Shown here in pieces: positions 564-60,934 of a stretch of 64,000 nucleotides of DNA (position 1 is the stretch's first letter; each line of letters begins with the position of its first letter). The stretch comes from Parachlamydiaceae bacterium. GTDB taxonomy: Bacteria; Chlamydiota; Chlamydiia; Chlamydiales; Parachlamydiaceae. A model generated the notes under the pieces. It ran no database searches and was not told the origin of the DNA. It saw nothing but the letters and a program-made list of their open reading frames with translations. The DNA lies in assembly GCA_044226925.1 (NCBI GenBank), contig JBGAGC010000001.1:474862-538861 (forward strand). Reading direction: 5' to 3'. Position numbers and translations under genes: made by a program.

Positions 564-1339
564 CTTTTTTTCCCATTAAACGGCTTTTTGCCCGGCTGCA
601 CAGGAGAGGTTATTTGAGAAGGTACTTGTCTTGGAAAAGGAGGTGGTTTATCATCGTCATCCTCATCATCCTCTAAGTCATCTTCATCGTCATCCTCATC
701 ATCCTCTAAGTCATCCTCATCATCATCCTCAGTTTCTTCTTGGTGAATTGCCGCTGTTTGACTTGGCTGACCTGGCGCTTGAGGTGTTGTTGGTTGATTT
801 TGATCTGGTCCATTAGCCTCTATTTTCTTTGATTCAATACAGACACAATAGTCATAAAAAGTGACGGCTGGATTTTGATTTTGGTCATCGCTTTTTTTAT
901 TTTCTAATTCTGTTGGTTTATAACGTGTATCTTCTAATTGAATGACAAGTTTGCCTATAGATTTTTTAGGTTTACCGGAAGTCGTTGCTATAGGAGTCAT
1001 CAACGTAAATTCGCCTTGAAATTTATAAGCTAATTGTTGCAAAAGTTGAGTAACTTCAGGATCTGATAAAACAATCAAATTTGATTGTTTTGCTTCAGGT
1101 AATGGAATATTGCGCTTATAAAGTTGTTCGATAAATTTAGCATGAATCAAATGCGCTAAATGATCACGATTGTTTTGTCGAATTATTTCTTGCTGCGATT
1201 GATAAATAGACGTAAAAATACGCATGGTGGGTGCAATGCAAATTAAGAGAATAAAGGCAGCCACCATCAACTCCAAAAGCTGGAAATGACGCTTATGACG
1301 TCGGATTCTGTTCAGAGCGATCTGCATATAATTTCTCAT
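560..1339 (-). CDS. pseudopilin-like protein with acidic D/E-repeat and Pro-rich C-terminal tail
   Basis: ORF track, 259 aa. RRHKRHFQLLELMVAAFILLICIAP is a prepilin-type N-terminus (Glu at +5 of FQLLE). The C-terminus is EETEDDDEDDLEDDEDDDEDDLEDDEDDDD followed by KPPPFPRQVPSQITSPVQPG. The start is Met1 (1339) or Met5 (1327). Either one overlaps the upstream ORF. Confidence 0.65.
   Translation of the reverse strand: MRNYMQIALNRIRRHKRHFQLLELMVAAFILLICIAPTMRIFTSIYQSQQEIIRQNNRDHLAHLIHAKFIEQLYKRNIPLPEAKQSNLIVLSDPEVTQLLQQLAYKFQGEFTLMTPIATTSGKPKKSIGKLVIQLEDTRYKPTELENKKSDDQNQNPAVTFYDYCVCIESKKIEANGPDQNQPTTPQAPGQPSQTAAIHQEETEDDDEDDLEDDEDDDEDDLEDDEDDDDKPPPFPRQVPSQITSPVQPGKKPFNGKKR
651..716. repeat. 33-bp tandem duplication (2 copies, 1 mismatch) inside the pseudopilin-like gene, encoding the acidic 11-aa repeat
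   Basis: 651-683 tcatcgtcatcctcatcatcctctaagtcatct is followed directly by 684-716 tcatcgtcatcctcatcatcctctaagtcatcc. Confidence 0.9.
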
Positions 1340-1901
1340 AAACTTCTGCAGGATAAAGCAACTGGCTTTTCTCTGCTTTTTTTTGCGGCTTTGCTTCAGG
1401 CGATTTAGCTGTTAAAGAAGTGGGATAACCGAGAAGTTCAATTTCAAATGTTCTTTTATTCGAGCGTTGAGTGTCATCTTTTTTTCCTTCAAATAAAATC
1501 AACATGCCTTGACTCATGTGACCTAAAGAAAATTCAATACTTAGTTCTTCCTCATTGCTCTCATTAAATTCATATGATTGGATCATCGATAATTTGACTT
1601 TACGCTCAACAAAACGATCCCAGCCTTTTTCTAAAGGCTTTTCAAGCTGCAGCCAAAAAAAAATTTGCTTACTATCAGGATCTTTTGCCATTTTAAAATG
1701 GACATCCGTATCCATAATCAGCATTAAATCCTGAGCCATAGCTAAATGGCTCAAGACCTGCTGAGATTCCGATAAGAAGCGTTGTTCTTGATAAACTTCT
1801 TTAATCTTTACTCCTGTTAAAATGGCACCAAATGACATAATGAATATGACAATCAATAGCTCTAACAAGGTAAAATAAGATTTTTTAACAATATGGATCA
1901 T
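1293..1901 (-). CDS. pseudopilin-like protein (minor pseudopilin position downstream of gspG)
   Basis: ORF track, 202 aa. N-terminus MIHIVKKSYFTLLELLIVIFIMSFGAILTG has a basic leader, FTLLE and a hydrophobic helix. It starts 14 nt downstream of the gspG stop. Confidence 0.65.
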   Translation of the reverse strand: MIHIVKKSYFTLLELLIVIFIMSFGAILTGVKIKEVYQEQRFLSESQQVLSHLAMAQDLMLIMDTDVHFKMAKDPDSKQIFFWLQLEKPLEKGWDRFVERKVKLSMIQSYEFNESNEEELSIEFSLGHMSQGMLILFEGKKDDTQRSNKRTFEIELLGYPTSLTAKSPEAKPQKKAEKSQLLYPAEVYEKLYADRSEQNPTS

Positions 1902-1915
1902 GAATCAAGTTAAAA

Positions 1916-2317
1916 CTATTGGCTATTAAATAAACTACCTTTACCTTTCGCAGATTGATATTCTCCATATTTTTTGGATGTAATTTCAATTTCGCCACTA
2001 TTATCAGTGCTCACTTCATAATCATCGCCCCATCCATCTTTCATCAATTCCTTAGAATTTTTGACAAGTTGAGAACTTGCAACAATATCTCTCCATCGAG
2101 AATCTAAATGCTCACGATCTTCTGGATGCGTTGCTAAATGAAGGTCTAACACAGTACGAATTTTATCAATCCCAGCTTTTGTTTTGAACGCCTTCCCTTC
2201 TTCTAAGCTTCCTGTATAGTTATAAGCAATAACACCAGTAATCATGGCAATCAAAAACATCACGATCATCATCTCAACTAACGTGATAAATCGCTTTTTA
2301 AATGCAAATTTTTTCAT
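1916..2317 (-). CDS. gspG: type II secretion major pseudopilin GspG
   Basis: MKKFAFKKRFITLVEMMIVMFLIAMITGVIAYNY N-terminus and a GWGDDYEV motif near the C-terminus. I chose the internal Met30 of the 162-aa ORF (ATG 2317-2315) because it is preceded by AAGAGGA. The longer 5' extension has no pilin-like sequence. Confidence 0.85.
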   Translation of the reverse strand: MKKFAFKKRFITLVEMMIVMFLIAMITGVIAYNYTGSLEEGKAFKTKAGIDKIRTVLDLHLATHPEDREHLDSRWRDIVASSQLVKNSKELMKDGWGDDYEVSTDNSGEIEITSKKYGEYQSAKGKGSLFNSQ

Positions 2318-2459
2318 CTTGTCCTCTTTGTTATTGTTAAATAAATCACATGAGAGTCGCAAAAATGAGAGCCAGAAATTAGGAGACAGAAGCCTATGCC
2401 ACATGATCTTAAGTAGTTTCTTCTGTCTTCTGACTGATGACTTCCATTTTTCAACTCTT

Positions 2460-3647
2460 TTACCCCACTGAAAAGGAACTGACGTCTGTTAATGGCAACA
2501 AAATTGCCAATAAAACTGTCCCAATGACAACCCCCATAACAATCAAAATCACAGGCTGTGCAAGCGCCATCACACGATCTAACGTTTTCTCGAGCTCTTG
2601 TTCATACATATCTGCAATACGATTGAGCATGACCACACTTGTTCCAGACTCTTCGCCTACAGCCAACATGCGAGAAATTAACTGAGGAATATACTTGGAT
2701 TTTGCCAACTCTCGACTTAAAGAGTGTCCTTCAATAATTTTTCCCTCTGCAACCTGGATCTCTTTTTCCAATACCACATTGCGCATAATCCCTCGCGAGA
2801 TGCGCAAAGCGTCAATCATGCTCAATCCCCCTTGCAACAAGGTCCCCATGGTTCGGCAAAAACGAGCCACAGCAGTTTGAATGACAAGTGTTTTAAGCAA
2901 AGGAATTTTTAAAAATGTTTTTTCTAACCATAGGCGGCCTTCCTGTGATCGCAATTTCCAAATTAATCCCACTATTCCACCCACAATGAGAGGAAAATAA
3001 AGCCACCAATAGTCCCGAAATAGATGACTAAGCCCTAGAACACCATTCGTAAAAGCATTCAACTTTCTTTCAGCAAAAATTCCTTCCAAAGAAGGCACCA
3101 CAAATCCTAAAAGCAGTGCAATAATGAGGAGCGAAAAGCCTCCTAAAATTCCAGGATAAATCATTGCTGTCACAATTTGTTTTTTCAACTTCATATTGCG
3201 TGAAAGAAAATGGGTTAATTTTTCTAGAACTGGTCCTAAAGCACCAACAGCTTCCCCTGCAGCAATCATTCCACAATACAGCTTATCGAAACTTTCAGGA
3301 TAAGTTCCCATGGCAGTTGACAATGACATTCCAGCGCGAATTTGCTCGCATAAACTTAAAATAATTCGATGATAAGACTCCCCTCTTGACTGCTCTTCAA
3401 GAGCTAATAAACTTTCATATAAAGGAACACCTGCGTTGATCAACTGTGAAAGCTGAACAGTAAATGCGAGTAAATGGTCGCCTTTTAAATTCTGTTTTTT
3501 GTTAATTTTATTTTTGGCTTGCAGCTGGATGACCAAGATTCCTTGCTCGCGCAATTTAGCTTTAGCTTCTCGATCTCCTTGAGCATCAATCGCTCCCGTT
3601 CTTCTTTTTCCCTGGCTGTCGACATATTGGTATTGATAAAGCGGCAT
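2460..3647 (-). CDS. gspF: type II secretion inner-membrane platform protein GspF
   Basis: 395 aa. Shows the duplicated GspF/PilC cytoplasmic-domain plus TM architecture (GVPLYESLLAL, LLQGGLSMIDAL). Lies between gspE and gspG. Confidence 0.9.
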   Translation of the reverse strand: MPLYQYQYVDSQGKRRTGAIDAQGDREAKAKLREQGILVIQLQAKNKINKKQNLKGDHLLAFTVQLSQLINAGVPLYESLLALEEQSRGESYHRIILSLCEQIRAGMSLSTAMGTYPESFDKLYCGMIAAGEAVGALGPVLEKLTHFLSRNMKLKKQIVTAMIYPGILGGFSLLIIALLLGFVVPSLEGIFAERKLNAFTNGVLGLSHLFRDYWWLYFPLIVGGIVGLIWKLRSQEGRLWLEKTFLKIPLLKTLVIQTAVARFCRTMGTLLQGGLSMIDALRISRGIMRNVVLEKEIQVAEGKIIEGHSLSRELAKSKYIPQLISRMLAVGEESGTSVVMLNRIADMYEQELEKTLDRVMALAQPVILIVMGVVIGTVLLAILLPLTDVSSFSVG

Positions 3648-3656
3648 AGATATTGT

Positions 3657-5288
3657 TTACCCCTGTTCTTCGATTCCTCTTGCGACACGTAGAACTTCAG
3701 CGGCAGTTGACATACCACTTTTCACTAGTTCGGCCCCATGTCCCAATAGACTAATCATTCCTTGAGCAAGGGCGACGCGGCGCATTTCAACAGCGTCGGG
3801 ACTTTGCACGATTTGTTTATTAATGGCATTATTGACGGGCATGAGTTCATAAACTCCCTGACGTCCTTTAAAGCCTGTTTGATAGCAGTGTCCGCATCCT
3901 TTTCCTCTATAAAGATAACCATCAGGCAAACTTTCAGGCTTAATTCCGAGACTTTGAAGCTCGCGCTGGTTTGGAATATATGTTTCTTTACATTCAGGGC
4001 AAATGCGGCGCACCAAACGCTGCGCTAATACACCAACAATACAAGACGACAGTAAATAGGGTTCGATTCCCATATCCACAAGACGAGTAATCGCAGAAGG
4101 AGCATCATTTGTGTGCAAGGTGCTTAATACCAAGTGGCCTGTTAAAGCAGCTTGAATCGCAATTTCAGCTGTTTCTTTATCACGTATTTCCCCCACCATG
4201 ATAACATCGGGGTCTTGACGTAAAATATGGCGCAAACCAGTGGCAAAATCGAGTTTAATTTTATGATGCACGCCAATTTGAGCAATCCCTTTGAGATTAT
4301 ATTCGACAGGATCTTCAATTGTCATGATATTGATTTCATCGTTTGCCATTTCACAAATTGCACTATAAAGCGTCGTTGTTTTTCCGCTTCCTGTTGGCCC
4401 TGTGACAAGAACAATTCCTTCTGGCAAATCCACCAAGCGTTTAAATTGTTCAAATACGCTAGGAAGCATGCCTATTTTATCCAAACCCAATAAGACATTG
4501 CCTTTGTCCAAAATACGCAACACGATGCGTTCTCCACCTGCAATCGGAACTGTACTAACGCGAAAATCAATTTCGCGTCTGCCCATACGCAGCTTGATGC
4601 GTCCGTCTTGCGGAAGGCGATGTTCAGCGATATCAAGCTTAGCCATAACTTTAATACGTGTAAGGAGCTGAACTTGATAATCTTGAGCTGGTGCATGGCG
4701 ATTTTGCAACACACCATCAATGCGATAGCGCACGCGCATGCCATTTTCAGAAGGTTCAAAGTGAATATCTGAGGCACCTTGTTGGATAGCTTCAGTTAAA
4801 ATCAAATTTAAAAGCTGAATAATGGGCGATTGATGGCGGCTTTGATCTAAAAGATCGAAAACTTCTACATCATCTGCTCGTCCAGCTTCATTTTTATCTG
4901 TTAAATTGGCAATAAGTTGTGAAGCAGCGCCATCTTCTGTGTTATAGCAATCATGAATGGCTGATAAAATAACATCGCGTGGACTATAAACAGCTTGAAC
5001 ATCGCAATTGAGCAAAAAGCGCAACTCTTCTAAAGGAGCAAGATTAAGCGGATCGGCCACAGCAATAATAACAGTTTTATCAAGATCTTGAATGGGCAGC
5101 ACCACATGCTTTTTAGCAAAAGAGTAAGGAATTTGTTTATAGCGTTCACGGCTAACTTGTTTACCAGATAAGTCATGATAAATTGGCATTCCTAATTGTT
5201 CTGCCAAGCTAGCTTGCGCATCGCCGCCTAACATTCCTTGAAGAGCTAAGCCTTCAGATCCTAACTGAGTGCCGTTAGCGTCCATCAT
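3657..5288 (-). CDS. gspE: type II secretion ATPase GspE
   Basis: Walker A GPTGSGKTTT, Asp box, Walker B DPDVIMVGEIRD, His box LTGHLVLSTLHTN and tetracysteine CPECK...CGHC. Start set at the MM pair (5288/5285) preceded by GGAGAA. This overlaps the gspD stop (5275) by about 14 nt. The ORF-track extension to 5360 lies inside gspD. Confidence 0.9.
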   Translation of the reverse strand: MMDANGTQLGSEGLALQGMLGGDAQASLAEQLGMPIYHDLSGKQVSRERYKQIPYSFAKKHVVLPIQDLDKTVIIAVADPLNLAPLEELRFLLNCDVQAVYSPRDVILSAIHDCYNTEDGAASQLIANLTDKNEAGRADDVEVFDLLDQSRHQSPIIQLLNLILTEAIQQGASDIHFEPSENGMRVRYRIDGVLQNRHAPAQDYQVQLLTRIKVMAKLDIAEHRLPQDGRIKLRMGRREIDFRVSTVPIAGGERIVLRILDKGNVLLGLDKIGMLPSVFEQFKRLVDLPEGIVLVTGPTGSGKTTTLYSAICEMANDEINIMTIEDPVEYNLKGIAQIGVHHKIKLDFATGLRHILRQDPDVIMVGEIRDKETAEIAIQAALTGHLVLSTLHTNDAPSAITRLVDMGIEPYLLSSCIVGVLAQRLVRRICPECKETYIPNQRELQSLGIKPESLPDGYLYRGKGCGHCYQTGFKGRQGVYELMPVNNAINKQIVQSPDAVEMRRVALAQGMISLLGHGAELVKSGMSTAAEVLRVARGIEEQG

Positions 5289-7848
5289 ATTCTCCACATA
5301 CATTTTCACCGCATCCGTTACAACTATCGAGAATGTAGTAATTTTCACGAGGACGTCCAAACAACAGGGTCATGCTTCCTTCCATTAAGCGTGTTTTGTT
5401 ATAATAATGAGCTTCTTCTACGCATTCTAAGAAGTAAGGAACATCACCTGGACGCAAGCAAAGAAGTTCTTGCCTTAGACAAGCCAACTGCTCTTTCGGA
5501 TCTTTGACGATGTGAGGAGTAATAAAAATAAACATCTCTGTGCTGCTATCTCTCATTGTATTAATGCTAAATAACTTTCCTAAACCTGGCAATTCGCCTA
5601 AGAATGGAATAGCTTCTCGCGTATCATTAGAGACTTTTCGGCGCAATCCACCTAAAATAACGGTATCGCCATCTGGCACTTGTACTTGGTTGGTGATATG
5701 ACGTCTTGTCACATTGGGTCGGTCGGCGTTCGCGCCTGGATGAATAGTATCAAAAGTAATATCGGTTTCTAATGTCACATAGTCATATTCGGGATCATTT
5801 TCTTCACACTGCGATAGGTGAATCGTCGGCTTAATGCTAATGGTGATTCCGTACTGAGCTCGGGTGAAAGCATCTTTTAAAGTCACCCCTTTCGCTGTTT
5901 CAACTTCAAATACACCAGTATTAATGGAAATATCTTCGTTAATTGCAATAGTGGCTGGTGTTTGGTTGACAGTCATCAACGATGGGTTGGAATTGATTTG
6001 AACATCATCTTGATTCAATAAGAAGCGATAGACAAGATCAAAGCCCGGAATGCCGCAATCTGTTCCTTTTCGGCTGATAAGAAATTCAAATACTCCAGCA
6101 CTCGCACGAACGGCATTTTTATGTCCTTTCGGGAAAAGGTTATTGAAAGCTGCACCTGTCACGTTTTTATGGCCGCAATCGTTACCGCCAATTTTCAAGA
6201 GATTAAGTCCGAAACTGTTCTCCCTGTTGAGAATTTTCTCAAACAACAATGTCTCAATCTGCACCATTTTTTTCGGCACATCAAGCTTACGTAATAAATC
6301 TTTAAGCTTAGGAAGAATATCAGCTTCAACCACCATGACAATGGCTCCAGTCTTGACATCAACAATAAAATTGTCACGATCGTTATTGGCAGTTGTAGGT
6401 GCAAAAACACGAGGCTGGGCAGGAGCTGGATTAACAATATATCCTCCCTCTTGATAGAAGCCTTCTTGCTGGTAAAGAAGCAAAGGTGGTTCCTTTTGCG
6501 GAGGAAGAGCTGGTGGAACAGGTGGAGGTCCTGCTGGATTATTGTTATCAACAACAACAACTTTATTTTGAACATTTTCAGGACCACCAGGAAGCGGCTG
6601 GCCTTCCATGCTTGCACCTGTTGAAATCATCAAAGAATAAACACGGTATAGGACGTCAGCAAGCTCTTCTGGCTCTGAATGTTTGACTGTATACCAGAAT
6701 ACAACCTTATCGCGCGCTCCGCCAATTTGGCTTTCTACATTACGAACAATTTCTTCAGCTTTGCGGACCTCTTCTCGAGTTCCCACGACAAAAAGGGCCT
6801 GTGCCATATTCTGCAAAACAATAATTTTTAATCCATTGATATCAGCAGCAGATGATGATGCACGAGGAGGCACCGGAGCATTTCCTCCTGTAGGCGAAGA
6901 TGGTGGAGCAGATATGGGAATTGGAGCATCTGTTTGATCAAAAATCGCGCTTAAAATTTTCGCCATCTCATCAGCTTGCAGTTTAAAAACAGGCAATAAG
7001 CGATATTCTTTTTCACCGCGATTAACTGCGATAAAATCGTAAAGCCTGAGAAGGTCTTGGATTTCTCCAGCAGGTCCAATGAGTAAAATGTCTCGGCCTA
7101 AAATCTGAAGAAGAGTGGTATTAGGATTAATGAATTTTTCTAAAAATGAAAAAGTCCGACGTACTTCAGAAGGTTCGGTTGAAAGAACAAAACTAACGCG
7201 AGCTGTAGGCGGCAATACTTCTAAATCTTGCCTTACATTGGTAATTAAGCGCAAATGAGCATTATTTTGCTTAATCAAATAGAGCTGCCGCAAATAAGGA
7301 TTAAGCGTTTTAATACCTACTCCATTTTGACTCAGAATCAATTCAAGCATTTCACTCCAGGCAGCACGAGGAATTGGCAAATTAGAATCAATGCTGAGTT
7401 TAATGCTTCCCACTTCAGGTGGAATCAAATATACATAATCCTGCGAGCCATAATCAATAATGAGTTGCTCTAATGTTGTTTCAGGAGCATGCCAAAGCCC
7501 GTAGCCTTCTGTGCGATTACCGCGTGTGACTAATTCACGCCATCGATTTTCTAAATGATTTAAATAGCGCTTTTGCTCATTGATTTGATCTAACAATATC
7601 CGATATTCTTGTGGAGGAGCATCAGCTTGATAAAGACGCAAGACTTCATCATATAACTGTTGAAGGCGCGCATGGATTTCTTGTGTTTCTTTATTGATTT
7701 GCAACAAAAAACGTTCTGTTTCTTGATCAAGATCACTCTCATTGGATTTAAGATTAGCCTTCTTTTCAGCAATCGATTGCCCAAATAAAGTAAACGATGG
7801 AAGCCCTAAGAAAAGAAACCCGATTATCCAAATACGTTTGCTTATCAT
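5275..7848 (-). CDS. gspD: type II secretion outer-membrane secretin GspD, with Pro-rich insertion and Cys-rich C-terminal extension
   Basis: 857 aa. Signal peptide MISKRIWIIGFLFLGLPSFTLFG. Secretin core VPDGDTVILGGL...IPFLGELPGLGKLF...TEMFIFITPHIV. Sits in the gspDEFG context. Confidence 0.9.
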   Translation of the reverse strand: MISKRIWIIGFLFLGLPSFTLFGQSIAEKKANLKSNESDLDQETERFLLQINKETQEIHARLQQLYDEVLRLYQADAPPQEYRILLDQINEQKRYLNHLENRWRELVTRGNRTEGYGLWHAPETTLEQLIIDYGSQDYVYLIPPEVGSIKLSIDSNLPIPRAAWSEMLELILSQNGVGIKTLNPYLRQLYLIKQNNAHLRLITNVRQDLEVLPPTARVSFVLSTEPSEVRRTFSFLEKFINPNTTLLQILGRDILLIGPAGEIQDLLRLYDFIAVNRGEKEYRLLPVFKLQADEMAKILSAIFDQTDAPIPISAPPSSPTGGNAPVPPRASSSAADINGLKIIVLQNMAQALFVVGTREEVRKAEEIVRNVESQIGGARDKVVFWYTVKHSEPEELADVLYRVYSLMISTGASMEGQPLPGGPENVQNKVVVVDNNNPAGPPPVPPALPPQKEPPLLLYQQEGFYQEGGYIVNPAPAQPRVFAPTTANNDRDNFIVDVKTGAIVMVVEADILPKLKDLLRKLDVPKKMVQIETLLFEKILNRENSFGLNLLKIGGNDCGHKNVTGAAFNNLFPKGHKNAVRASAGVFEFLISRKGTDCGIPGFDLVYRFLLNQDDVQINSNPSLMTVNQTPATIAINEDISINTGVFEVETAKGVTLKDAFTRAQYGITISIKPTIHLSQCEENDPEYDYVTLETDITFDTIHPGANADRPNVTRRHITNQVQVPDGDTVILGGLRRKVSNDTREAIPFLGELPGLGKLFSINTMRDSSTEMFIFITPHIVKDPKEQLACLRQELLCLRPGDVPYFLECVEEAHYYNKTRLMEGSMTLLFGRPRENYYILDSCNGCGENVCGEYDGR

Positions 7849-7867
7849 ATCTGTTACACCTTAACAG

Positions 7868-42288: not shown

Positions 42289-42293
42289 AAAGA

Positions 42294-42366
42294 TGGAGCG
42301 TAACGGAGTCGAACCGTTGGCCTCAACAATGCCATTGTTGCGCTCTACCAACTGAGCTAACGCCCC
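42294..42366 (-). tRNA. tRNA-Ala (anticodon GGC)
   Basis: The reverse complement GGGGCGTTAGCTCAGTTGGTAGAGCGCAACAATGGCATTGTTGAGGCCAACGGTTCGACTCCGTTACGCTCCA folds as a cloverleaf. Acceptor stem has the G3:U70 Ala identity pair. D arm GCTC/GAGC. Anticodon stem CAACA/TGTTG with loop ATGGCAT (anticodon GGC). T arm AACGG-TTCGACT-CCGTT. CCA is not encoded. Confidence 0.93.
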
Positions 42367-42580
42367 AAAGAATGAGTTATTTATTTTAGTCAGCGTTTCT
42401 TTTTTAAGCAATCATAATAGTATCTGGCAATTAAAGACAAAAATGCCAAGATTTCAAACTTTTATTTTCTGCTAACATAAAAGCCATCATCTAGGCATTA
42501 GAGCCTGTTAAGTAATAGAAACTTCAATTCATATTTTTATTTTAAAATATAATTTTTTAGTTTAGTTTTTCTTTAAATTT

Positions 42581-43768
42581 ATGAATATGGAGTACAAGAT
42601 GCGTCATATACTTTCTTTTCTTTGCTTAATGATTTTTAGTACCTTTTTAGAAAGTGCTTCTGCCATTTCACCAAGTGGAGATCCTTGGCTTTTAACACCA
42701 GGACCTTTGACAACCTCTTTGACAGTGAAAGAAGCAATGCTTCATGATTATGGTTCTCGCGATCCAACTTTCATCAAATTCAATCAAGAAATTCTGCATG
42801 ACTTACTGGATATCGTTTCTGGACAAGAGACGCATGTTGTCGTTCCACTTCAAGGATCGGGAACATTTGTTGTGGAGGCAATGTTACGTACACTAGTTCC
42901 TCGTGAAGGCAAAGTGCTCTTATTAATAAATGGTGTTTATGGAAGACGCATGAGGGACATTTGTAAAGCCATTCCTAGATCTTTTGAAGTACTAGAATTT
43001 CCCGAAGATCAACCAATTGACGTCAATGTTGTTAAAGAAATTTTAGTTAAAGATGCTTCTTTGACCCATGTCGCAGCTATTTACTGTGAAACCACGACAG
43101 GGATTTTGAATCCTATCTCAAAAATTGCTGAAGTCGTCTCGCAAGCAGAACGTAAATTACTTATTGATGCAATGAGTGCTTTTGGAGCACTGCCTCTGGA
43201 TAGCCAAGAAATTGATTTTGATGCAGTTTGCGCTTCATCTAATAAGTGCTTGCAAGGAGTTCCTGGAGTAGGATTTTGTATAGCAAGAAAACAGTCTTTG
43301 GAAAAAGCAGAAGGAAATGCAGGTTCATTATCTCTAGATCTTTTTGCACAATGGAAAGAGATGACACGAAGCGGTCAATGGCGCTTTACTCCACCTACAC
43401 ATGTCCTTTTGGCTTTTCATCAAGCTTTAAAAGAATTTAAAGAAGAGGGAGGAGTCGCAGGGCGCGGCAAGCGATATGCAGATAATTGCCAAATATTACG
43501 CGCTGGCATGCTTTCATTAGGATTTGAACCTTTATTACCGGAAGAACTGCAAGCTCCTATTATTTTAACATTTCAAATGCCCAAAGATCCTGCTTTTAAT
43601 TTTTCTTCTTTCTATCAACAGTTAAAAGCTAGAGGTTTTATTATTTATCCAGGGAAATTAACACATATCGATACTTTTCGCATTGGATGCATCGGAGATC
43701 TAAGTTCAAAAGAAATAGAAGAGGCGTTGGAAGCAATTCGCGCTGTTCTTACAACAAGCAAGGAATAA
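42581..43768 (+). CDS. phnW: 2-aminoethylphosphonate:pyruvate aminotransferase with N-terminal signal peptide
   Basis: 395 aa. Core motifs LLTPGPLTTSLTVKEAMLHDYGSRD and the PLP-Lys motif SSNKCLQGVPGVGF match PhnW (class V aminotransferase). It is preceded by about 30 extra residues MNMEYKMRHILSFLCLMIFSTFLESASA|IS with n-h-c signal-peptide structure. Confidence 0.85.
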   Translation: MNMEYKMRHILSFLCLMIFSTFLESASAISPSGDPWLLTPGPLTTSLTVKEAMLHDYGSRDPTFIKFNQEILHDLLDIVSGQETHVVVPLQGSGTFVVEAMLRTLVPREGKVLLLINGVYGRRMRDICKAIPRSFEVLEFPEDQPIDVNVVKEILVKDASLTHVAAIYCETTTGILNPISKIAEVVSQAERKLLIDAMSAFGALPLDSQEIDFDAVCASSNKCLQGVPGVGFCIARKQSLEKAEGNAGSLSLDLFAQWKEMTRSGQWRFTPPTHVLLAFHQALKEFKEEGGVAGRGKRYADNCQILRAGMLSLGFEPLLPEELQAPIILTFQMPKDPAFNFSSFYQQLKARGFIIYPGKLTHIDTFRIGCIGDLSSKEIEEALEAIRAVLTTSKE

Positions 43769-43772
43769 AGAT

Positions 43773-44699
43773 ATGAAAAAGAAGATTTTAGCTTCTATTG
43801 TTTTGTGTTCTTTGATTTTGATGAATGTATTACAAGCAGAAGAAACATCTAAACGGATTAAACTCGTCATTCTAGACAATTCTGGCACATTAAATGATTG
43901 CGGAGTCTACGCACCAGTTATAGCTTTCGTTCAGCTATTTGAAAAGTACGGTCTGGAGATTACGATGGAAGAAGCTCGAATTCCAATGGGACTCTATAAA
44001 AAAGATCATATTCGAGCTATTTTGTCCATGGCACGTGTTAGCTCTCTTTTTCAGACACTTTATCAACGTACTTGGACTGAACAAGACGTGGAAAATATGT
44101 TTACAGATTTTATTCCCATTCAAATGAGCTGCTTGGAAGATTACGCTGATCTTATTCCTGGAACAGCAGAGACTTTAGCTTTCATTAAAGAAACGTATGG
44201 AGTTAAAATCGGTTTAACAACAGGTTTTGATCAAGAAATGAACGAACTTGTTTTGAGAAAAGCCAAAGAACAAGGATTTTTTCCTGATGCTTATACAAGC
44301 TCCAGCCAAGTTCCAAAAGGAAGACCTTACGGATATATGATCGAAGAAAATATGCGCCAAACAGGAATTACCGATCCGGAAGAAATTTTAAAAATCGGAG
44401 ATACTTATGGAGATATGCAGGAAGGAAAAGCGATGCAAGCTTTGTTAGGCTCTCCAACATGGACCTTGGGACTTACAACAACTGGAAATTACGTTGGCAA
44501 GCAATGGAAAGACATTATTGCTACACCTGGAGATTTTCTACAAAAAGAACAACAAAAAGCAGAAAAATTCCTTTATCAAGCTGGAGCAGACTATGTCGCT
44601 CCTAATCTCAATTCGCTTCCAGCCATTATTGAACTTATCAATGCTCGTTTAAAAGCAGGAGAGCATCCCCGTTCCCCTTCATTAGATTTCTTAAAATAG
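43773..44699 (+). CDS. phnX: phosphonoacetaldehyde hydrolase (phosphonatase, HAD family) with N-terminal signal peptide
   Basis: 308 aa. Motifs VILDNSGT (nucleophile Asp), FAP..F, EEARIPMGLYKKDHIRAIL (Schiff-base Lys region), GLTTGF and IGDTYGDMQEG resemble Bacillus PhnX as I recall it. The N-terminus MKKKILASIVLCSLILMNVLQA|EE is signal-peptide-like. The start lies 4 nt after the phnW stop and is preceded by AAGGA. Confidence 0.8.
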   Translation: MKKKILASIVLCSLILMNVLQAEETSKRIKLVILDNSGTLNDCGVYAPVIAFVQLFEKYGLEITMEEARIPMGLYKKDHIRAILSMARVSSLFQTLYQRTWTEQDVENMFTDFIPIQMSCLEDYADLIPGTAETLAFIKETYGVKIGLTTGFDQEMNELVLRKAKEQGFFPDAYTSSSQVPKGRPYGYMIEENMRQTGITDPEEILKIGDTYGDMQEGKAMQALLGSPTWTLGLTTTGNYVGKQWKDIIATPGDFLQKEQQKAEKFLYQAGADYVAPNLNSLPAIIELINARLKAGEHPRSPSLDFLK

Positions 44700-44714
44700 A
44701 ACAAAGGAGAATGT

Positions 44715-45437
44715 ATGAAAAATGTTCTGCTAGGATTAAGTTTATTGCTGCTTTTAGCAGCTTGCACATTACAAAGTGATGAGAAAACAGCTTCCGGACG
44801 TCAAACTTCTGAAAAACGGGAAGTCGAACATTTTTCCCGTATCTTTTTTGCAGGCAATGGGAATCTATTCCTTCAACAAGGGGATACAGAAGAAATCACG
44901 ATTGAAACAGATGAAAGTCTTTTACCCTATGTAAAAACAGAGGTTAAAGATGGCACTTTGTATATTGAAGAAAAACCATTGGGCTGGTTGCAAAGTTTCA
45001 AATCCCGAGCTCTTAATGTCTATGTTTCCTTAAGAAAATTAGAAGAGGTCACTTTAGCTGGTAAAGCCAAAGTCACAGCAGATAAAGAAATTAGAGGAGG
45101 AGCTTTAGTCGTTAGAGTCAGCGGAGCTGGACAAGTCGACCTTCCTATCAATTACGAAAAACTTTCTGCAAGCGCAGCAGGATCTGCACAATATACTTTA
45201 AAAGGACAAGTGACAAACCAAGATATTCAAATCACAGGGTCATGTTTGTATGATGCATTGAATTTAGCAAGTCAACAAACTTCAATTGATATTCGCGGCA
45301 ATGGACAGGTCAACGTTAACGTCCAAAACGAATTAACAATCATCATTACTGGTAATGGTTTAGTTCGTTATGTAGGAAAACCTTCCATTACTCAAAAGGT
45401 TTTTGGCAAAGGGAAAATAGAAGAACTCAATCAATAA
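44715..45437 (+). CDS. lipoprotein, DUF2807/GIN-domain-like (putative beta-helical surface protein)
   Basis: 240 aa. Lipobox LLLLAAC. Repetitive beta-strand pattern (GNGNLFLQQGD, VSGAGQVDL, IRGNGQVNV, ITGNGLVRYVG) as in DUF2807. Starts 15 nt after phnX, preceded by AAGGAGA. Confidence 0.65.
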   Translation: MKNVLLGLSLLLLLAACTLQSDEKTASGRQTSEKREVEHFSRIFFAGNGNLFLQQGDTEEITIETDESLLPYVKTEVKDGTLYIEEKPLGWLQSFKSRALNVYVSLRKLEEVTLAGKAKVTADKEIRGGALVVRVSGAGQVDLPINYEKLSASAAGSAQYTLKGQVTNQDIQITGSCLYDALNLASQQTSIDIRGNGQVNVNVQNELTIIITGNGLVRYVGKPSITQKVFGKGKIEELNQ

Positions 45438-52266: not shown

Positions 52267-53736
52267 CTATAGTTCGGAACTTTTTAAGCTGCTTTTTTAA
52301 ATATTTCAGCGAGAATGGGAACAGTTAATCCGCATTCTTCCCATATGTGAGGGCTATCAATAATAGATTTTCTCAGTTGACCTTTAAGAGCTCGAAGAGT
52401 TAAGCGCTTAGCAGGCTTTCTCCAAGGAGGATCATCTGTAAGAGGGGGTTCATCTTGATAAGTTTGCAAGCTTACAAGCAAAAGAGCACTATAAGCTGCA
52501 ACATGTAAAGCTGGTTGCTTTTCAACTGATTTTTCATTTCTTACTTGAGCTTGTCCAACTCCTAAAATAGACTTTTCATCACGGTGATTATATTCGATTT
52601 GCCATCTATCGAAATAAGCTTGAATGACTTTAAGGGTATCTAGTTCTTGATCTGTACAGAGGAGAAAAGCAGGCTGTCTATAGCACTTTTTACCAGCTTT
52701 TCGATAGGCTAAAGGAGCAATCACAATAAGTTTTAAAAACTTGCGCTTTGTTCCCGATTTCCAAAGAACATTTTTGATTTGCTTATATCGAACAGGATTA
52801 AAATAGCCGCCATAGTAAATAATACCTTCTTGCCATACAAGTGTCTGATCTTGTAGGACAGAGAGAGGAGTAAAAGTAAAGTCATCGTAAAACTTTCTTT
52901 TCTTTTGAGAAGAAAAACAAAGTTTAGCATCTTTTCTACATCTTGCAACAAGACTTGTTCGATCGAGATCTATTCCCATACAAATTTTATTACAAAAACT
53001 ACCATCTCCAACTAAAAGAAGTTTTTTATCTTGATAACCCATCTGATCTAAAGCTTGCCTCAATTCGTTTGCATGCTCTTTAAACAATGTAGATAGATTG
53101 AATTGCTCTTTTGCAAGCCGATATTCTTTAATTTCTTCTTCACTTGCTTTCTTATGAGGTTTCTTTATATGCGGAGCATTAATAAATCGAATAGGAATCG
53201 CTCTTGGCGGCTTTTGCCATAAACGATGAAGAGGCATAAGAATAGAAAACTGTAAAAATCTTAATCCCCAGATTAAATTAACACAAAAAGCTGGAGACAT
53301 GGGGTCTCTATGCCAAGAAGTAAAAGGAATTTTTTTACCTGTCTTCTTAAGTCTTGTATCATCGACTCCCACGGCTATGAAATCATCTGGAATATAATCC
53401 AAACATTTTTTTAGGATCGGATTAAAAACATCTTGCGTTTTCCACTTGCATTTAGAGTATAATTTGTAATCTGAACTTGGCTTTGTTTTCGCTTTTCCAA
53501 GAAAAATTGCAAAGTTCGTAATCGTGGCTCTGCCAAAAAGACATAAAGCTGCTACCGCATGTGCTTTAGCTTTTAAAAAGGCTTGTTTCTTTGTGAAAAG
53601 TGGACGCCATAAATCTAATGTAGTAACTAAATTCTTTAGCAGGTTCATATATTGTTCTCCTTTGGTCGGGAAGAACATCTATTTTATGGACCTGCTCTTT
53701 TTTTTGGAATTTAACTGAAAAAGTTCCGAACTATAG
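52267..53736 (-). mobile_element. insertion sequence, IS4 superfamily, 1470 bp, apparently intact
   Basis: Perfect 19-bp terminal inverted repeats: CTATAGTTCGGAACTTTTT (52267-52285) and AAAAAGTTCCGAACTATAG (53718-53736). A single transposase ORF fills the element, and it is flanked by a perfect 32-bp direct repeat. Confidence 0.9.
52284..53648 (-). CDS. DDE transposase (IS4 superfamily)
   Basis: Candidate DDE residues are VGVDDT, LLVGDGSF and the Y-(2)-R-(3)-E-(6)-K signature in YFDRWQIEYNHRDEK. Start set at MNLLKNL (ATG 53648), preceded by AAGGAG 8 nt upstream. The ORF track begins 10 codons earlier. Confidence 0.85.
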   Translation of the reverse strand: MNLLKNLVTTLDLWRPLFTKKQAFLKAKAHAVAALCLFGRATITNFAIFLGKAKTKPSSDYKLYSKCKWKTQDVFNPILKKCLDYIPDDFIAVGVDDTRLKKTGKKIPFTSWHRDPMSPAFCVNLIWGLRFLQFSILMPLHRLWQKPPRAIPIRFINAPHIKKPHKKASEEEIKEYRLAKEQFNLSTLFKEHANELRQALDQMGYQDKKLLLVGDGSFCNKICMGIDLDRTSLVARCRKDAKLCFSSQKKRKFYDDFTFTPLSVLQDQTLVWQEGIIYYGGYFNPVRYKQIKNVLWKSGTKRKFLKLIVIAPLAYRKAGKKCYRQPAFLLCTDQELDTLKVIQAYFDRWQIEYNHRDEKSILGVGQAQVRNEKSVEKQPALHVAAYSALLLVSLQTYQDEPPLTDDPPWRKPAKRLTLRALKGQLRKSIIDSPHIWEECGLTVPILAEIFKKAA

Positions 53737-57015: not shown

Positions 57016-58587
57016 TTAGATATTCTCCATTAAATTCCGGTGAGGACCCGATGCTGTAATGACAACTTTAGCTAAAGCATCAGAAGTGTAAGCAAAAGGC
57101 AAAATTGAAATATTCGCAATTCGTATTTGCTTGGGATTAGCACCTTTTGCAATTGCTTGCTGCTTAGCTTGTTCTTTTAAATCATTGAGGACTTTTTCTC
57201 GTTCTTTAAGTGAAAAAACACCATCTATTACACTCGACACTTCTGCAAGACCTGCTCCATAGGCATTAGCTACAGAAGCTTCTATTGGTGCCCATCCTTT
57301 TAATCCAAAATCTTTAAAAAGAGGCTGCAAAAGGGACGCTCCTCCTCCCACTAGGATGACTGGAAATTCATGTCTTTTTCCTCTTAAACGAATAATGCCT
57401 TGATATATTTTTTGACAAACATATGTGATCATTTCTTTCGCATAAGAAGAATTTAATCCTATTTTCTCCTGAAAAGAATCTTCTAATTGTAAATAACCTG
57501 CCGCAATTCCGACATCGGTTAACGTCAAAGTCGATCCTCCAAATACTCGAGATTGAACTTTTAATTCTCTTGCAACACTTTGAGGGCCTACTTGAAATGT
57601 ATGATGGTCTTTAAGCTGAACATGGCTTCCTCCACCAAAAGCCAAAGAAATCATATCTGGCATTGAAAAGTGCAACGGAATTCCTCCAATAGCAGCAGCT
57701 TGCAGCGACGATCTCGCATATCCTCCTTCTACAATTCCGATATCTGTTGAAGTTCCTCCTATATCGACGACAATTGCCTCTTGTGCCCCGCAAAGTCTAG
57801 TGGCTCCAACAAACGAATTGGTAGGACCAGCTCCAATTGTTTTGATGGGAAAATCAATGGCTTCTTGTAATGAAAGCAAGCTGCCATTATTTTGCGTGAG
57901 CCATAAAGAAGCCTCTATTCCTAATTGTCGAAGAACTTCTTCAACATGGCAAAATCCTTGAGCAATGACTTTTTTAAGCGCAGAATTAAGAAGAGTTGCA
58001 TTCTCTCTTTCAATCAATCCAATGCCACCAATTTGATGAGAAAGAGAAAATGGAAAATTTTTCCCTGCTAATTCTTGAATGACGAAACCCACTTCTTTCT
58101 CTTGCTGACCATTAAGAGGCGAGAAAGATCCAACAACACTAATAGCCTCGACTCCTTTATCCATTAAATACATCAATGCTTGCTTAATTTGTGCAAGATT
58201 GAATTTTGTAGAACTTCTACCATCGCATTCATATCCTCCTTCACAAGTTTCATAAGCTGCTATCACCTGTTCCTTTAAATTTAAAGGCCAACCAAATCCT
58301 GGAGAAGGAAATCTAGGTTTTCCATCTAGCAGCCTTAAGAGACCAACTTTAAGCAAATTTTTTCCTTCTAAAATCGCATTTGTTGCATGCGTCGTTCCTA
58401 CAATCACATTTTGAATGGAACATGGTGAAAGATGAGCTTTTGTTAAGAGTTGTTTGACAATGGTCTTAACACCTGCTTCAAGTGAAGCAGTAGTTGTGGT
58501 TTTTCCCCACGCATGACTTTTGCCTTGCCAATCCAAAAGAACTCCATCAGTATGAGTTCCTCCAACATCTATTCCAATTTTATACAT
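57016..58587 (-). CDS. hydantoinase/oxoprolinase A-family (ATP-dependent, actin-like fold) protein
   Basis: 523 aa. MYKIGIDVGGTHTDGVLL N-terminus and a second phosphate loop VVDIGGTSTDIG, as in Hydantoinase_A/HyuA. Confidence 0.75.
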   Translation of the reverse strand: MYKIGIDVGGTHTDGVLLDWQGKSHAWGKTTTTASLEAGVKTIVKQLLTKAHLSPCSIQNVIVGTTHATNAILEGKNLLKVGLLRLLDGKPRFPSPGFGWPLNLKEQVIAAYETCEGGYECDGRSSTKFNLAQIKQALMYLMDKGVEAISVVGSFSPLNGQQEKEVGFVIQELAGKNFPFSLSHQIGGIGLIERENATLLNSALKKVIAQGFCHVEEVLRQLGIEASLWLTQNNGSLLSLQEAIDFPIKTIGAGPTNSFVGATRLCGAQEAIVVDIGGTSTDIGIVEGGYARSSLQAAAIGGIPLHFSMPDMISLAFGGGSHVQLKDHHTFQVGPQSVARELKVQSRVFGGSTLTLTDVGIAAGYLQLEDSFQEKIGLNSSYAKEMITYVCQKIYQGIIRLRGKRHEFPVILVGGGASLLQPLFKDFGLKGWAPIEASVANAYGAGLAEVSSVIDGVFSLKEREKVLNDLKEQAKQQAIAKGANPKQIRIANISILPFAYTSDALAKVVITASGPHRNLMENI

Positions 58588-58589
58588 TT

Positions 58590-59669
58590 TTATCCTCTTT
58601 CTGCTATAGGGTGATAATCACATTGAAATCCAAATACTTTTGGCCCAACACAAGCTAATCCTTGAGGGGTTTGCCATACGATAGGAGCTGGTAAAGCGCA
58701 GACACATACTTGCATTCCAAAAGCAAGCCGTTCAACAGGAACAGGTAATCCACTATCATGATCGAAAACAACAATAATATCAGGAGTTGTCACAACATAG
58801 TCTTGATTGTTTTTTTGTATGGCTAAAAATTCATTTTGATAATGAATGGTCCATTGAACATTGCCTTGTTCAATGCAGACTGATCCTTTTAAAAAAGAAC
58901 CTTGCAAAGAAGATATCATATCTAGAATGGTTCCTTCTAAAATCAATTTCCCGCCCCACTTTTTAAGAAGATTAGGAGCGAATAGCTCGCCTTGTTCTCT
59001 TGCCGTTAAAAATGTTTGTCCCATTTCGATGGCTAAAGAAATAGATCCTTTAATTAACGTTTTTTTTGCTTGTTCTCCCTGCATAGGATAAGTACAAACA
59101 GCAGCACTTGCTCCCATCGAAGTCGTTAATGCTCTTAATTGCCTTTCCATAGTTTCTCCATCTTTGGCATAAACAATCGCGTATTGATCTGTATGATCAA
59201 CGATGATTGCAGGTGAGGGAGAGATACTCGCTAAATGGCAAACACTCATATTCATTTCTGGAAATGCTCTTCCAAAAGTATCTGCATCTAATACGGGTAT
59301 TCCTAGCTGTCCTGCCGCACAAAAAGGAGCAAAGGCATTAGAACCTCCTATTTCAAATGGCAATAAAGCAGAAACGGGTCGTTGACAAGAATGAAGTTGA
59401 TCGACAATCAAAGAAAATTCTCTACCGCTTGGAATTTTCTCTAAACATACAAGGGGAGCACCCATGTATCCAATAGGAGCTACCCAAGATTGATCTTCTA
59501 AATCATCGATCGAGAGAAGAAGGACAGGCCCCCACTCTCGAATGCATTCCTTAGCAAGAATCAGATCATAAGCTGGATCTCCTCCTCCTCCTGAACCCAG
59601 AATATTCGCTCCAATAGCTAAGGCATCTAATTCTTTTTCTCCTATCCATCTTAAAGTTGATTGTTTCAT
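58590..59669 (-). CDS. DUF917-family protein (hydantoinase-associated)
   Basis: About 359 aa from MKQSTLRWIGEKE (ATG 59669, overlapping the permease TGA as ATGA). ANILGSGGGGDP glycine loop, which I recall as typical of DUF917. The stop is 2 nt before the hydantoinase start. The ORF-track 5' extension lies inside the permease gene. Confidence 0.6.
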   Translation of the reverse strand: MKQSTLRWIGEKELDALAIGANILGSGGGGDPAYDLILAKECIREWGPVLLLSIDDLEDQSWVAPIGYMGAPLVCLEKIPSGREFSLIVDQLHSCQRPVSALLPFEIGGSNAFAPFCAAGQLGIPVLDADTFGRAFPEMNMSVCHLASISPSPAIIVDHTDQYAIVYAKDGETMERQLRALTTSMGASAAVCTYPMQGEQAKKTLIKGSISLAIEMGQTFLTAREQGELFAPNLLKKWGGKLILEGTILDMISSLQGSFLKGSVCIEQGNVQWTIHYQNEFLAIQKNNQDYVVTTPDIIVVFDHDSGLPVPVERLAFGMQVCVCALPAPIVWQTPQGLACVGPKVFGFQCDYHPIAERG

Positions 59670-60934
59670 CCGATTTCCTCCACTAACATTTGTTGAATAG
59701 GCTTGAAAATAACATTTAAAAATTGACTGATCAGCAACATCAGTATAGAACCTATGCCAGCATCTAAAACAGGTGCACCAGATCCTAATTGCGGCCATAA
59801 AAAGGAGCTAAATCCAGCTCCAATTCCGATGCCCCAAGACATCCAAACACAGAAAGATTTGGGAGAAAATCCATAACTTTCCAATATAAAAGCCATAAAC
59901 ATCACTCCTCCCATTGCAATGACAAAAATTCCCATGACATCTAAAGCCACTGAAAATTGTTCAAGCATAGGAATAAAAACTAAACAGCATCCTATTAAAC
60001 CTGCCAGTCCTGTTGCAGTCGATAACGACATACTTTTGGCAAGACTTGTCAAGCTTAAAGAAGCTGAGTAAAGATTAAGATTATTGGTCGTCCATCCTGC
60101 TAAGAGCATGAAAAAAACAACCCAAATCTTCCAAGAAATTGTCGGATTTGAAGCTAACGCTTCACTAATGCCAGGAGCTTGTGTTCCGTAGTTCAAACAT
60201 AGGCCTGCTATTTGAACAAGAGGTATGGCGAATAAATAATTAGCAATAGAAGCTTGAATGACTGATTTTTGACTATCGCTATGCCGATAAAAAGTTGGTA
60301 GATCAATTGTTGCTGCCATAGAAGAAGCCAACACTAGCGAAACACCTTTGCCATCCCATAAGGATGGCAAAGAGCTCAGAGAAAAATCTTTTATCCAAGA
60401 TATATTTCCTACTTCATAAACAGCATAACTAATCGTTCCTAGTAATAAAGGAACACAAAGATTAGACAACCAAGTAAAGAATTTAAGCCCCCAGAAAGCC
60501 CCTATAACCATCAAAGCAGCCAATATGACAGATAACGAAATCTTCCATGAAGCGCCATGAATTAGATCCTCGCCTTTTACATACTTCATCAGATGGTAAA
60601 TGTCTGTTCCCATACATTGTGTTTGAATGGCAAACCATCCCAACATAGAGCTTGCTAAAGTTAATCCAAAAAATTTTCTTCCAGTAGAGCCAAAATAACA
60701 GGAAGCATGCTCAACAGTTGTCAAGGGATTTTTGGTACTCATGTATCCTGCAATCAGCGCTAAGCCAAATAGCAAAAGATTTCCCCATAAAATCGAACTC
60801 AATATTGTAATCGGATGTCCTTGTTTGGCTAATTCATAACCCACAATTAACACAGGTAAGCAAATCGTTCCTCCAATTTGCACACTTGCTAACTGTTTCC
60901 AATTTTGTTTTTGTGTTTTTGCTAAAGAAAACAT
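59666..60934 (-). CDS. NCS1-family (CodB-like) nucleobase/hydantoin-type permease
   Basis: 422 aa with about 12 TM segments. Its size and its N-terminal region (GGTICLPVLIVGYELAK) suggest purine-cytosine/hydantoin permeases. Confidence 0.6.
   Translation of the reverse strand: MFSLAKTQKQNWKQLASVQIGGTICLPVLIVGYELAKQGHPITILSSILWGNLLLFGLALIAGYMSTKNPLTTVEHASCYFGSTGRKFFGLTLASSMLGWFAIQTQCMGTDIYHLMKYVKGEDLIHGASWKISLSVILAALMVIGAFWGLKFFTWLSNLCVPLLLGTISYAVYEVGNISWIKDFSLSSLPSLWDGKGVSLVLASSMAATIDLPTFYRHSDSQKSVIQASIANYLFAIPLVQIAGLCLNYGTQAPGISEALASNPTISWKIWVVFFMLLAGWTTNNLNLYSASLSLTSLAKSMSLSTATGLAGLIGCCLVFIPMLEQFSVALDVMGIFVIAMGGVMFMAFILESYGFSPKSFCVWMSWGIGIGAGFSSFLWPQLGSGAPVLDAGIGSILMLLISQFLNVIFKPIQQMLVEEIG

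Follow-up and report, generated by a model that had tools for sequence, protein, structure and literature searches.

The phnW–phnX gene pair and its products

The 64,000-nucleotide (nt) stretch of contig JBGAGC010000001.1 analyzed here, referred to as the window, comes from a Parachlamydiaceae bacterium and carries a tight cluster of three plus-strand open reading frames (ORFs) at 42581–43768, 43773–44699, and 44715–45437. The spacers between them measure 4 nt and 15 nt, in line with a first-pass annotation made from the letters alone. The first two ORFs encode PhnW, a 2-aminoethylphosphonate (AEP):pyruvate transaminase, and PhnX, a phosphonoacetaldehyde hydrolase, and both products begin with a predicted Sec type-I signal peptide (SP). 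The features of the cluster are listed below, where an arrow marks a predicted cleavage position and aa stands for amino acids.

42599..43768, plus strand: phnW, 2-aminoethylphosphonate:pyruvate transaminase precursor, 389 aa, assigned from family models, alignment with Protein Data Bank (PDB) entries, and the conserved start
42581..42598, plus strand: upstream in-frame ATGs (MNMEYK), probably untranslated; the orthologues begin at MR... and GGAG precedes ATG 42599
42599..42664, plus strand: predicted Sec type-I signal peptide of PhnW, MRHILSFLCLMIFSTFLESASA↓IS, 22 aa
43773..44699, plus strand: phnX, phosphonoacetaldehyde hydrolase precursor, 308 aa, assigned from TIGR01422 and alignment with Bacillus cereus PhnX
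43773..43838, plus strand: predicted Sec type-I signal peptide of PhnX, MKKKILASIVLCSLILMNVLQA↓EE, 22 aa
44715..45437, plus strand: gene for a DUF2807 (GIN-domain) lipoprotein with the lipobox LLAA↓C, assigned from Pfam PF10988 (155 bits)

The identity of the two enzymes proposed in the first-pass annotation was upheld by scores above the equivalog cut-offs and by retained catalytic motifs. PhnW scored 514.5 bits against the NCBIfam model NF010006 (cut-off 296) and 473.4 bits against TIGR02326 (cut-off 400.8), and its fold was given by a Pfam Aminotran_5 match and an AlphaFold2 model with a predicted template modeling score of 0.86. Its motif SSNKCLQGVPG, which holds the lysine that binds pyridoxal 5'-phosphate (PLP), corresponds to SSANKCIQGVPG in PDB entry 1m32 and is kept in 7e7g as well. 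PhnX scored 248 bits against TIGR01422 (cut-off 220), and its DNSGT, PMGLYKKDH, GRPY, and GDTYGD motifs correspond to D12, K53, H56, R160, and D186/D190 of the B. cereus phosphonatase. DNSGT represents the motif I nucleophile of the haloacid dehalogenase (HAD) superfamily, PMGLYKKDH contains the Schiff-base lysine, and GDTYGD is motif IV; a serine lies two residues past the nucleophile, where HAD phosphatases typically have aspartate. These catalytic columns are invariant both in the clade of PhnX orthologues described below and in more distant sequences. We regard phnW–phnX as a predicted two-gene operon for the classical phosphonatase pathway.

The family models first match at residues 33–35 in PhnW and at residue 29 in PhnX. 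Alignment of PhnW with 7e7g and 1m32 begins at query residue 34–36, residues 34–390 being aligned with residues 7–363 of 7e7g, and residues 28–289 of PhnX align with residues 5–259 of the B. cereus enzyme with the catalytic residues retained. As the alignments with solved structures begin at residue 34 (PhnW) and residue 28 (PhnX), the extensions are additions to cytoplasmic-type enzymes, in agreement with the earlier description. Both enzymes thus look catalytically complete, with approximately 22–28 additional residues at the N-terminus.

The first-pass annotation began phnW at 42581. The start shared with the orthologous loci is the ATG at 42599 (MRHILSF...), which is preceded by GGAG at a distance of 6 nt; it matches that of the database protein P0001 and is shared with the loci L002 and L006. 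Position 42599, not 42581, hence appears to be the best start, and the signal-like segment persists with either of them. When the codons were read, the stretch from the hydrophobic segment to the conserved core was found to contain no in-frame ATG, GTG, or TTG: one ATG lies inside the hydrophobic segment (codon 11 counted from 42599), and the next start codon is a TTG within the GPLTTS core. The extension of PhnW therefore cannot be removed by re-calling the start, as had been claimed.

N-terminal presequences in the window and in the orthologues

Signal peptides were scored by a loose heuristic that considers the charge of the n-region, the length and hydropathy of the h-region, and the presence of a small-x-small site. 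The presequence of PhnW has an n-region of charge +1, an h-region of 15 uncharged residues with a best 10-residue hydropathy of 2.96, and ASA at positions −3 to −1, while that of PhnX has an n-region of charge +3, an h-region of 18 residues, and LQA at the same positions. By this heuristic, both have the n/h/c layout of a Sec type-I signal. No twin-arginine motif occurs in the n-region of any presequence listed, by which twin-arginine (Tat) export was ruled out. The lipobox pattern [LVI][ASTVI][GAS]C is absent from PhnW and PhnX of the window; it was found in the third gene and possibly in the PhnW orthologue P0003 (LLS↓C). AlphaFold2 models built on the clade alignments placed a helix at residues 2–19 of PhnX, followed by a coil (20–30) and the HAD core, with a mean predicted local distance difference test (pLDDT) score of 93, while residues 1–20 of PhnW had a pLDDT below 50 and were located outside the fold. 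In these models, the presequences are dispensable for the fold. The idea of a peptide for encapsulation in a microcompartment, taken from PMC9324843, was dropped, because the segments are built as n/h/c signals and not as an amphipathic helix, and because their surroundings contain no genes for a shell.

The evidence for export that a single genome can provide is weak, and it is the comparative data that carry the weight. An SP-like presequence was found in all 26 full-length PhnX proteins of at least 59% identity (305–326 aa), each with a positive n-region, an h-region of 12–20 residues, and a small-x-small site around residue 19–25, whereas none was found in the 29 remoter full-length PhnX matches of 44% identity or less (258–286 aa). 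The nine nearest PhnW proteins (60–79% identity) are also all SP-like. One of them, P0004, became so after a start re-call, since its start had been miscalled and an in-frame upstream ATG in locus L013 yields MIKTIAVFLSIVLSINVLG. The N-termini of the other 111 top PhnW matches are short and hydrophilic, and none is SP-like; these matches are approximately 60–64% identical, and the few that are named come from Gammaproteobacteria or Kiloniellales. The nine SP-bearing PhnW proteins were monophyletic in a neighbor-joining tree of the 60 best matches, constructed as a quick distance tree. For PhnX, the SP-bearing clade formed a single representative at the 50%-identity level with 423 bits, and the next protein had 202 bits, among 1.84 billion representatives searched. 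The survey for SP-bearing phnWX pairs suggested in the first-pass annotation hence revealed a trait of one clade that is missing from the more distant full-length matches compared with it.

Within this clade, the pairwise identity of PhnX was 23% for the presequence versus 70% for the mature part, and 16 of the 26 proteins have no methionine beyond residue 10, so that in these 16 no internal start could bypass the h-region. The low identity of the presequences, their constant physicochemical layout, and the lack of an internal methionine in most of the proteins are together what one would expect to see in signal peptides rather than in sequence that is untranslated or accidental. The predicted presequences are thus conserved across the whole clade and absent from the other PhnW and PhnX matches examined in this comparison; as they are kept throughout, the orthologues argue against start-calling artefacts, which had been named as a possible refutation. 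The adjacency of phnW and phnX is also kept in L002, L003, L006–L011, L013, and L014, and the two genes are fused in L004.

This fusion (L004:1406–3484, plus strand) originates from a metagenome-assembled genome, falls into the PhnW sub-branch of P0005 and P0007, and encodes a 692-aa PhnW–PhnX protein that contains a short masked stretch (XXXX) and carries one signal, at its N-terminus (MLSFFKDFFFSTSLFLFLIFPIASHA...). L004 was one of just two loci recovered when contigs were scanned with PhnW. The PhnX part of the fusion starts at ...EEELSKKRIKLV, which equals the predicted mature end, with the junction ...QHPEEELSKKRIKLV. As the PhnX part begins at the predicted cleavage point, it is devoid of its presequence. 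Once the two enzymes are linked, the second presequence seems to be dispensable, which is consistent with a role in targeting and with one common destination for the pair.

Outside the clade, SP-like PhnX sequences were found in P0325, P0443, and P0367. The last is encoded by L016:10001–12025 (plus strand) as a 674-aa SP–PhnX–PhnW fusion of an unrelated lineage, which has a PhnX of the DWAGT type and a PhnW part 51% identical to that of the window. Export of the phosphonatase seems to have evolved repeatedly. In contrast, many further N-extended PhnX representatives look like proteins with eukaryotic organellar presequences.

The gene for P0367 adjoins a FAD_binding_4 gene, resistance-nodulation-division (RND) efflux genes, and an SDF symporter gene. 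A lone SP-bearing phnX paralogue without phnW was also observed at L012:10001–10918 (plus strand), in the same sediment metagenome assembly as L010, where it follows a gene for a membrane-anchored FAD_binding_4/ALO oxidase. Its motif IV is degenerate (DDTCAG, not GDTxGD) and it has a short deletion; this paralogue may be decaying or may have acquired a new function. An association of FAD_binding_4 genes with SP-bearing PhnX (L012 and L016) was rejected, as the identity over the FAD domain is just 24%.

Predicted location of the enzymes and competing explanations

The conserved layout of the presequences makes it fairly likely that both enzymes are produced as precursors with cleavable Sec type-I signals and work beyond the cytoplasm, the periplasm being the simplest location. 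For this export reading, we infer signal cleavage, the final location, the source of the substrate, and the uptake of the products. The Sec machinery would carry both precursors across the inner membrane in an unfolded state, their signals would be removed, and folding together with binding of PLP and Mg2+ would take place after translocation, in the periplasm. AEP and pyruvate would arrive through outer-membrane pores and be converted by PhnW into phosphonoacetaldehyde and alanine, and PhnX would hydrolyze phosphonoacetaldehyde with water to acetaldehyde and phosphate. Phosphate, and alanine as well, would then be imported by ordinary transporters, while acetaldehyde would be formed outside the cytoplasm and a dedicated AEP importer would be unneeded. 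The last two points are plausible advantages for a reduced genome.

Several observations weigh against such an export. The heuristic flags 13 of the 49 ORFs in the window as SP-like, including Rossmann-fold false positives. PhnW requires PLP and pyruvate, which would have to be available outside the cytoplasm, and PhnX retains an active-site-proximal cysteine (NDCG) that would face an oxidizing compartment. The first-pass annotation regarded Sec export of a PLP enzyme as unusual, which it is, yet there is a precedent for cofactor loading outside the cytoplasm in the PLP-dependent racemases that work in the periplasm, such as ArgR/Alr of P. taetrolens, Alr of P. putida KT2440, and BsrV of V. 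cholerae. These racemases differ in fold type and reaction and use no co-substrate, whereas PhnW needs pyruvate as the amino acceptor. For PhnX, a comparison is offered by the periplasmic HAD acid phosphatases, namely, class B AphA and the class C lipoprotein e(P4), which are HAD-fold enzymes functional in the periplasm. Together with the secreted PhoA, PhoX, and PhoD, they release phosphate outside the cytoplasm, which leaves only inorganic phosphate to be imported. All of these enzymes cleave P–O esters and not the C–P bond, whereas PhnX works through a Schiff-base lysine and depends on the prior action of the transaminase.

A further step may be considered, since the substrates of the type II secretion system (T2SS) are proteins with Sec signals that fold in the periplasm. 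After Sec translocation, PhnW and PhnX could cross the outer membrane by the T2SS and act in the inclusion lumen, a host compartment, or the environment. GspF, GspE, and the GspD secretin are encoded in the window and both enzymes are soluble and globular in their AlphaFold2 models; however, T2SS substrates carry no identifying sequence feature, the gsp genes lie approximately 35 kb from phnWX with nothing that ties them together, and the phosphonoacetaldehyde intermediate and PLP would be more diluted outside the cell. We therefore regard secretion by this route as possible but unlikely.

It is also distinctly unlikely that the hydrophobic segments serve as uncleaved signal anchors, by which the enzymes would be tethered on the outer face of the inner membrane, or lipid-anchored in some orthologues. 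Some orthologues do have h-regions of 18–23 residues or weak AxA sites, and P0003 has the lipobox-like sequence noted above, which would suit such tethering. Most h-regions, however, comprise 12–18 residues, and behind them come a small-x-small site and a linker of acidic or polar residues, which is how cleaved signals are arranged; the window proteins themselves have good ASA and LQA sites.

A different explanation concerns the chemistry, in that the pair might have shifted to another periplasmic aminophosphonate or to a surface-linked phosphonate and would take part in, for example, the remodeling of AEP-decorated glycans or lipids instead of scavenging. The divergence of PhnX would be accounted for in this way, as the clade proteins are no more than 44% identical to remoter PhnX, have DNSGT in place of DWAGT, and exceed the TIGR01422 cut-off just modestly (248 versus 220). 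On the other hand, the clade retains the Schiff-base lysine, histidine, cysteine, and motif IV that are specific to phosphonoacetaldehyde hydrolases, a serine stands two positions past the nucleophile in place of the aspartate typical of HAD phosphatases, and PhnW is 60–64% identical to its proteobacterial-type matches. A change of substrate is hence considered improbable.

That the extensions are an untranslated annotation artefact, with real starts downstream giving ordinary cytoplasmic enzymes, may draw on the internal Met17 of PhnX and the internal starts picked by the gene caller in L013 and L014, but it is extremely improbable given that phnW has no usable start between its h-region and core, that 16 of the 26 PhnX orthologues have no alternative methionine, that every orthologue has kept the upstream frame open, with positive, hydrophobic, and AxA features, although identity is as low as 23%, and that exactly this segment was removed in the L004 fusion.

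Gene neighborhood, source organism, and implications

Beyond phnW and phnX themselves, the following features of the window were assigned.

42534..42550, plus strand: AT-rich box TTTTTATTTTAAAATAT, approximately 50–65 nt upstream of the phnW start, from aligned upstream sequences of five loci
42292..42367, minus strand: tRNA-Ala(GGC), the upstream border of the cluster, from ARAGORN
2460..7848, minus strand: type II secretion genes gspF, gspE, and gspD (secretin), from Pfam T2SSF, T2SSE, and Secretin matches

The AT-rich box is largely kept in five loci whose surrounding intergenic sequence diverges, and may be a promoter or regulatory site. A generic promoter and terminator scan gave results no better than those for shuffled sequence. 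The GC content of the cluster is 0.37–0.38, the same as in its flanks, and provides no sign of recent transfer.

The third gene is, as described in the first-pass annotation, a lipobox protein with a DUF2807 body, but its inclusion in the phosphonatase module was not borne out. A DUF2807 lipoprotein gene adjoins phnX in the window only and not in L002, L003, L006/L007, L010/L011, or L013, where the genes downstream of phnX are unrelated and encode, for example, a Rce1-like protein, a hexapeptide transferase, a cyclase, and endonuclease V. A conserved third partner of phnWX was sought across the loci, and none was found. On the upstream side, a PhoH-like ATPase gene with a PIN domain lies immediately before phnW on the same strand in L002, L006, and L007, which are the closest relatives of the window pair, and is not present at this position in the window or elsewhere. 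In L010 and L008/9, phnW is preceded by genes for proteins of 445–457 aa that are mutually unrelated and have no Pfam match. In L010, the 445-aa protein (7378–8715, plus strand), whose gene immediately precedes phnW, begins with a signal-like segment and contains GYSHGG, which resembles GxSxG. This protein may be an esterase or lipase that is exported, and it is not conserved in the other loci. Divergent genes upstream of phnW in L003 (3202–5853, minus strand) and L013 (145–1491, minus strand) encode similar low-complexity proteins rich in Lys, Glu, and Pro, which share an N-terminal block (...FFTALKQ[IL]FGNI...). These proteins have no Pfam match and may be chlamydial effector-like proteins.

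The absence of a transporter gene from the cluster, which had been pointed out earlier, extends further: no recognizable phosphonate or phosphate transporter was found among the annotated ORFs of the window (approximately 560–59,800). The T2SS gene cluster (560–9277, minus strand) contains gspF (2460–3647), gspE (3657–5360), and gspD (5275–7848), the listed coordinates of the gspE and gspD ORFs overlapping, and small ORFs at 560–2404, one having a prepilin-like N-terminus (KKSYFTLLELLIVIF). Other genes observed in the window are those for a 741-aa YjbH-family protein with a signal-like N-terminus (12324–14549, plus strand; 538 bits), a family of exopolysaccharide-associated outer-membrane proteins that is unexpected in a chlamydial genome; an IS701-family transposase (52284–53678, minus strand; NF049999 at 130.7 bits, under the cut-off of 170); and adjacent hydantoinase/caprolactamase-alpha-like and thiohydantoin-desulfurase-like proteins (57016–59798, minus strand), both far under the equivalog cut-offs.

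Regarding the organism, the TopA encoded in the window has a C-terminal SWIB domain and is 78–80% identical to Candidatus Protochlamydia proteins, and the window also codes for a 724-aa GreA, NqrA, and an MreC that best matches NF011450/PRK14872. This combination of TopA-SWIB, long GreA, NqrA, and MreC points to a Parachlamydiaceae-like chlamydia, and the contig is 1.78 Mb long. L014 shares the order long GreA/Ham1/YacP with 41–66% identity, and L010–L012 come from the Loki's Castle marine-sediment metagenome, which was analyzed for chlamydiae. The first-pass annotation had assumed an amoeba-associated chlamydia. The Parachlamydiaceae-like affiliation stands; however, the named Protochlamydia genomes seen in the TopA search are not among the PhnW and PhnX clade matches, by which the trait is patchy in chlamydiae and no general property of amoeba symbionts.

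The pair shares its protein families, gene adjacency, and catalytic residues with the canonical cytoplasmic PhnW–PhnX systems of Salmonella enterica, Pseudomonas, and B. cereus. It differs from them in that the canonical proteins of solved structure start at the core, whereas the window pair has Sec-type presequences and no transporter gene nearby. Canonical PhnX was SignalP-negative in a study of Achromobacter (PMC11203657), and the canonical pathway depends on importers for AEP, for example, PhnSTUV or AepXVW (PMC10574752). In a 2023 review of phosphonate degradation, the periplasm is mentioned for transporter binding proteins and porins only, and no mention of extracytoplasmic phosphonate enzymes was found there (PMC10574752). 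PhnW/PhnX fusions (P0362, P0397, and others) couple the two activities physically and mostly have no signal; two signal-bearing ones were found, L004 in the clade (SP–PhnW–PhnX) and P0367/L016 in another lineage (SP–PhnX–PhnW). No description of an exported PhnW or PhnX was found in the literature on chlamydiae with AEP or PhnW, or on PhnX with periplasm or signal peptide. Judging from the sequences compared, the predicted exported PhnW–PhnX pair is a real, conserved, and apparently undescribed variant of a known pathway in another compartment.

Phosphonates are abundant in amoebae, ciliates, cnidarians, and molluscs. Lipophosphonoglycan constitutes approximately 30% of the Acanthamoeba plasma membrane (PMC2109393). 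We tentatively suggest that environmental chlamydiae might use Sec-exported, and possibly T2SS-secreted, PhnW and PhnX to mine host AEP for phosphate and alanine without an importer, although the odds are against this specific scenario. The host pool would be free AEP or the head groups of phosphonolipids and lipophosphonoglycan. Harvesting of host phosphonates, as put forward in the first-pass annotation, may be regarded as a reasonable conjecture.

The phosphonate catabolic routes treated in the 2023 review are described as intracellular and paired with dedicated importers (PMC10574752), by which surveys infer phosphonate users from transporter and enzyme genes jointly. If the two enzymes are indeed exported, cleavage of the C–P bond would be possible in the periplasm or outside the cell, a PLP transaminase would work off an external keto-acid pool, and AEP would be usable by organisms without phosphonate transporters. 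The independent signal-bearing PhnX–PhnW fusions in other bacteria hint at a wider use of this strategy. For chlamydiae, host phosphonates would be indicated as a source of phosphorus, and the mining of host AEP, if true, would represent a new form of nutritional parasitism as well as the first route of phosphonate catabolism located outside the cytoplasm.

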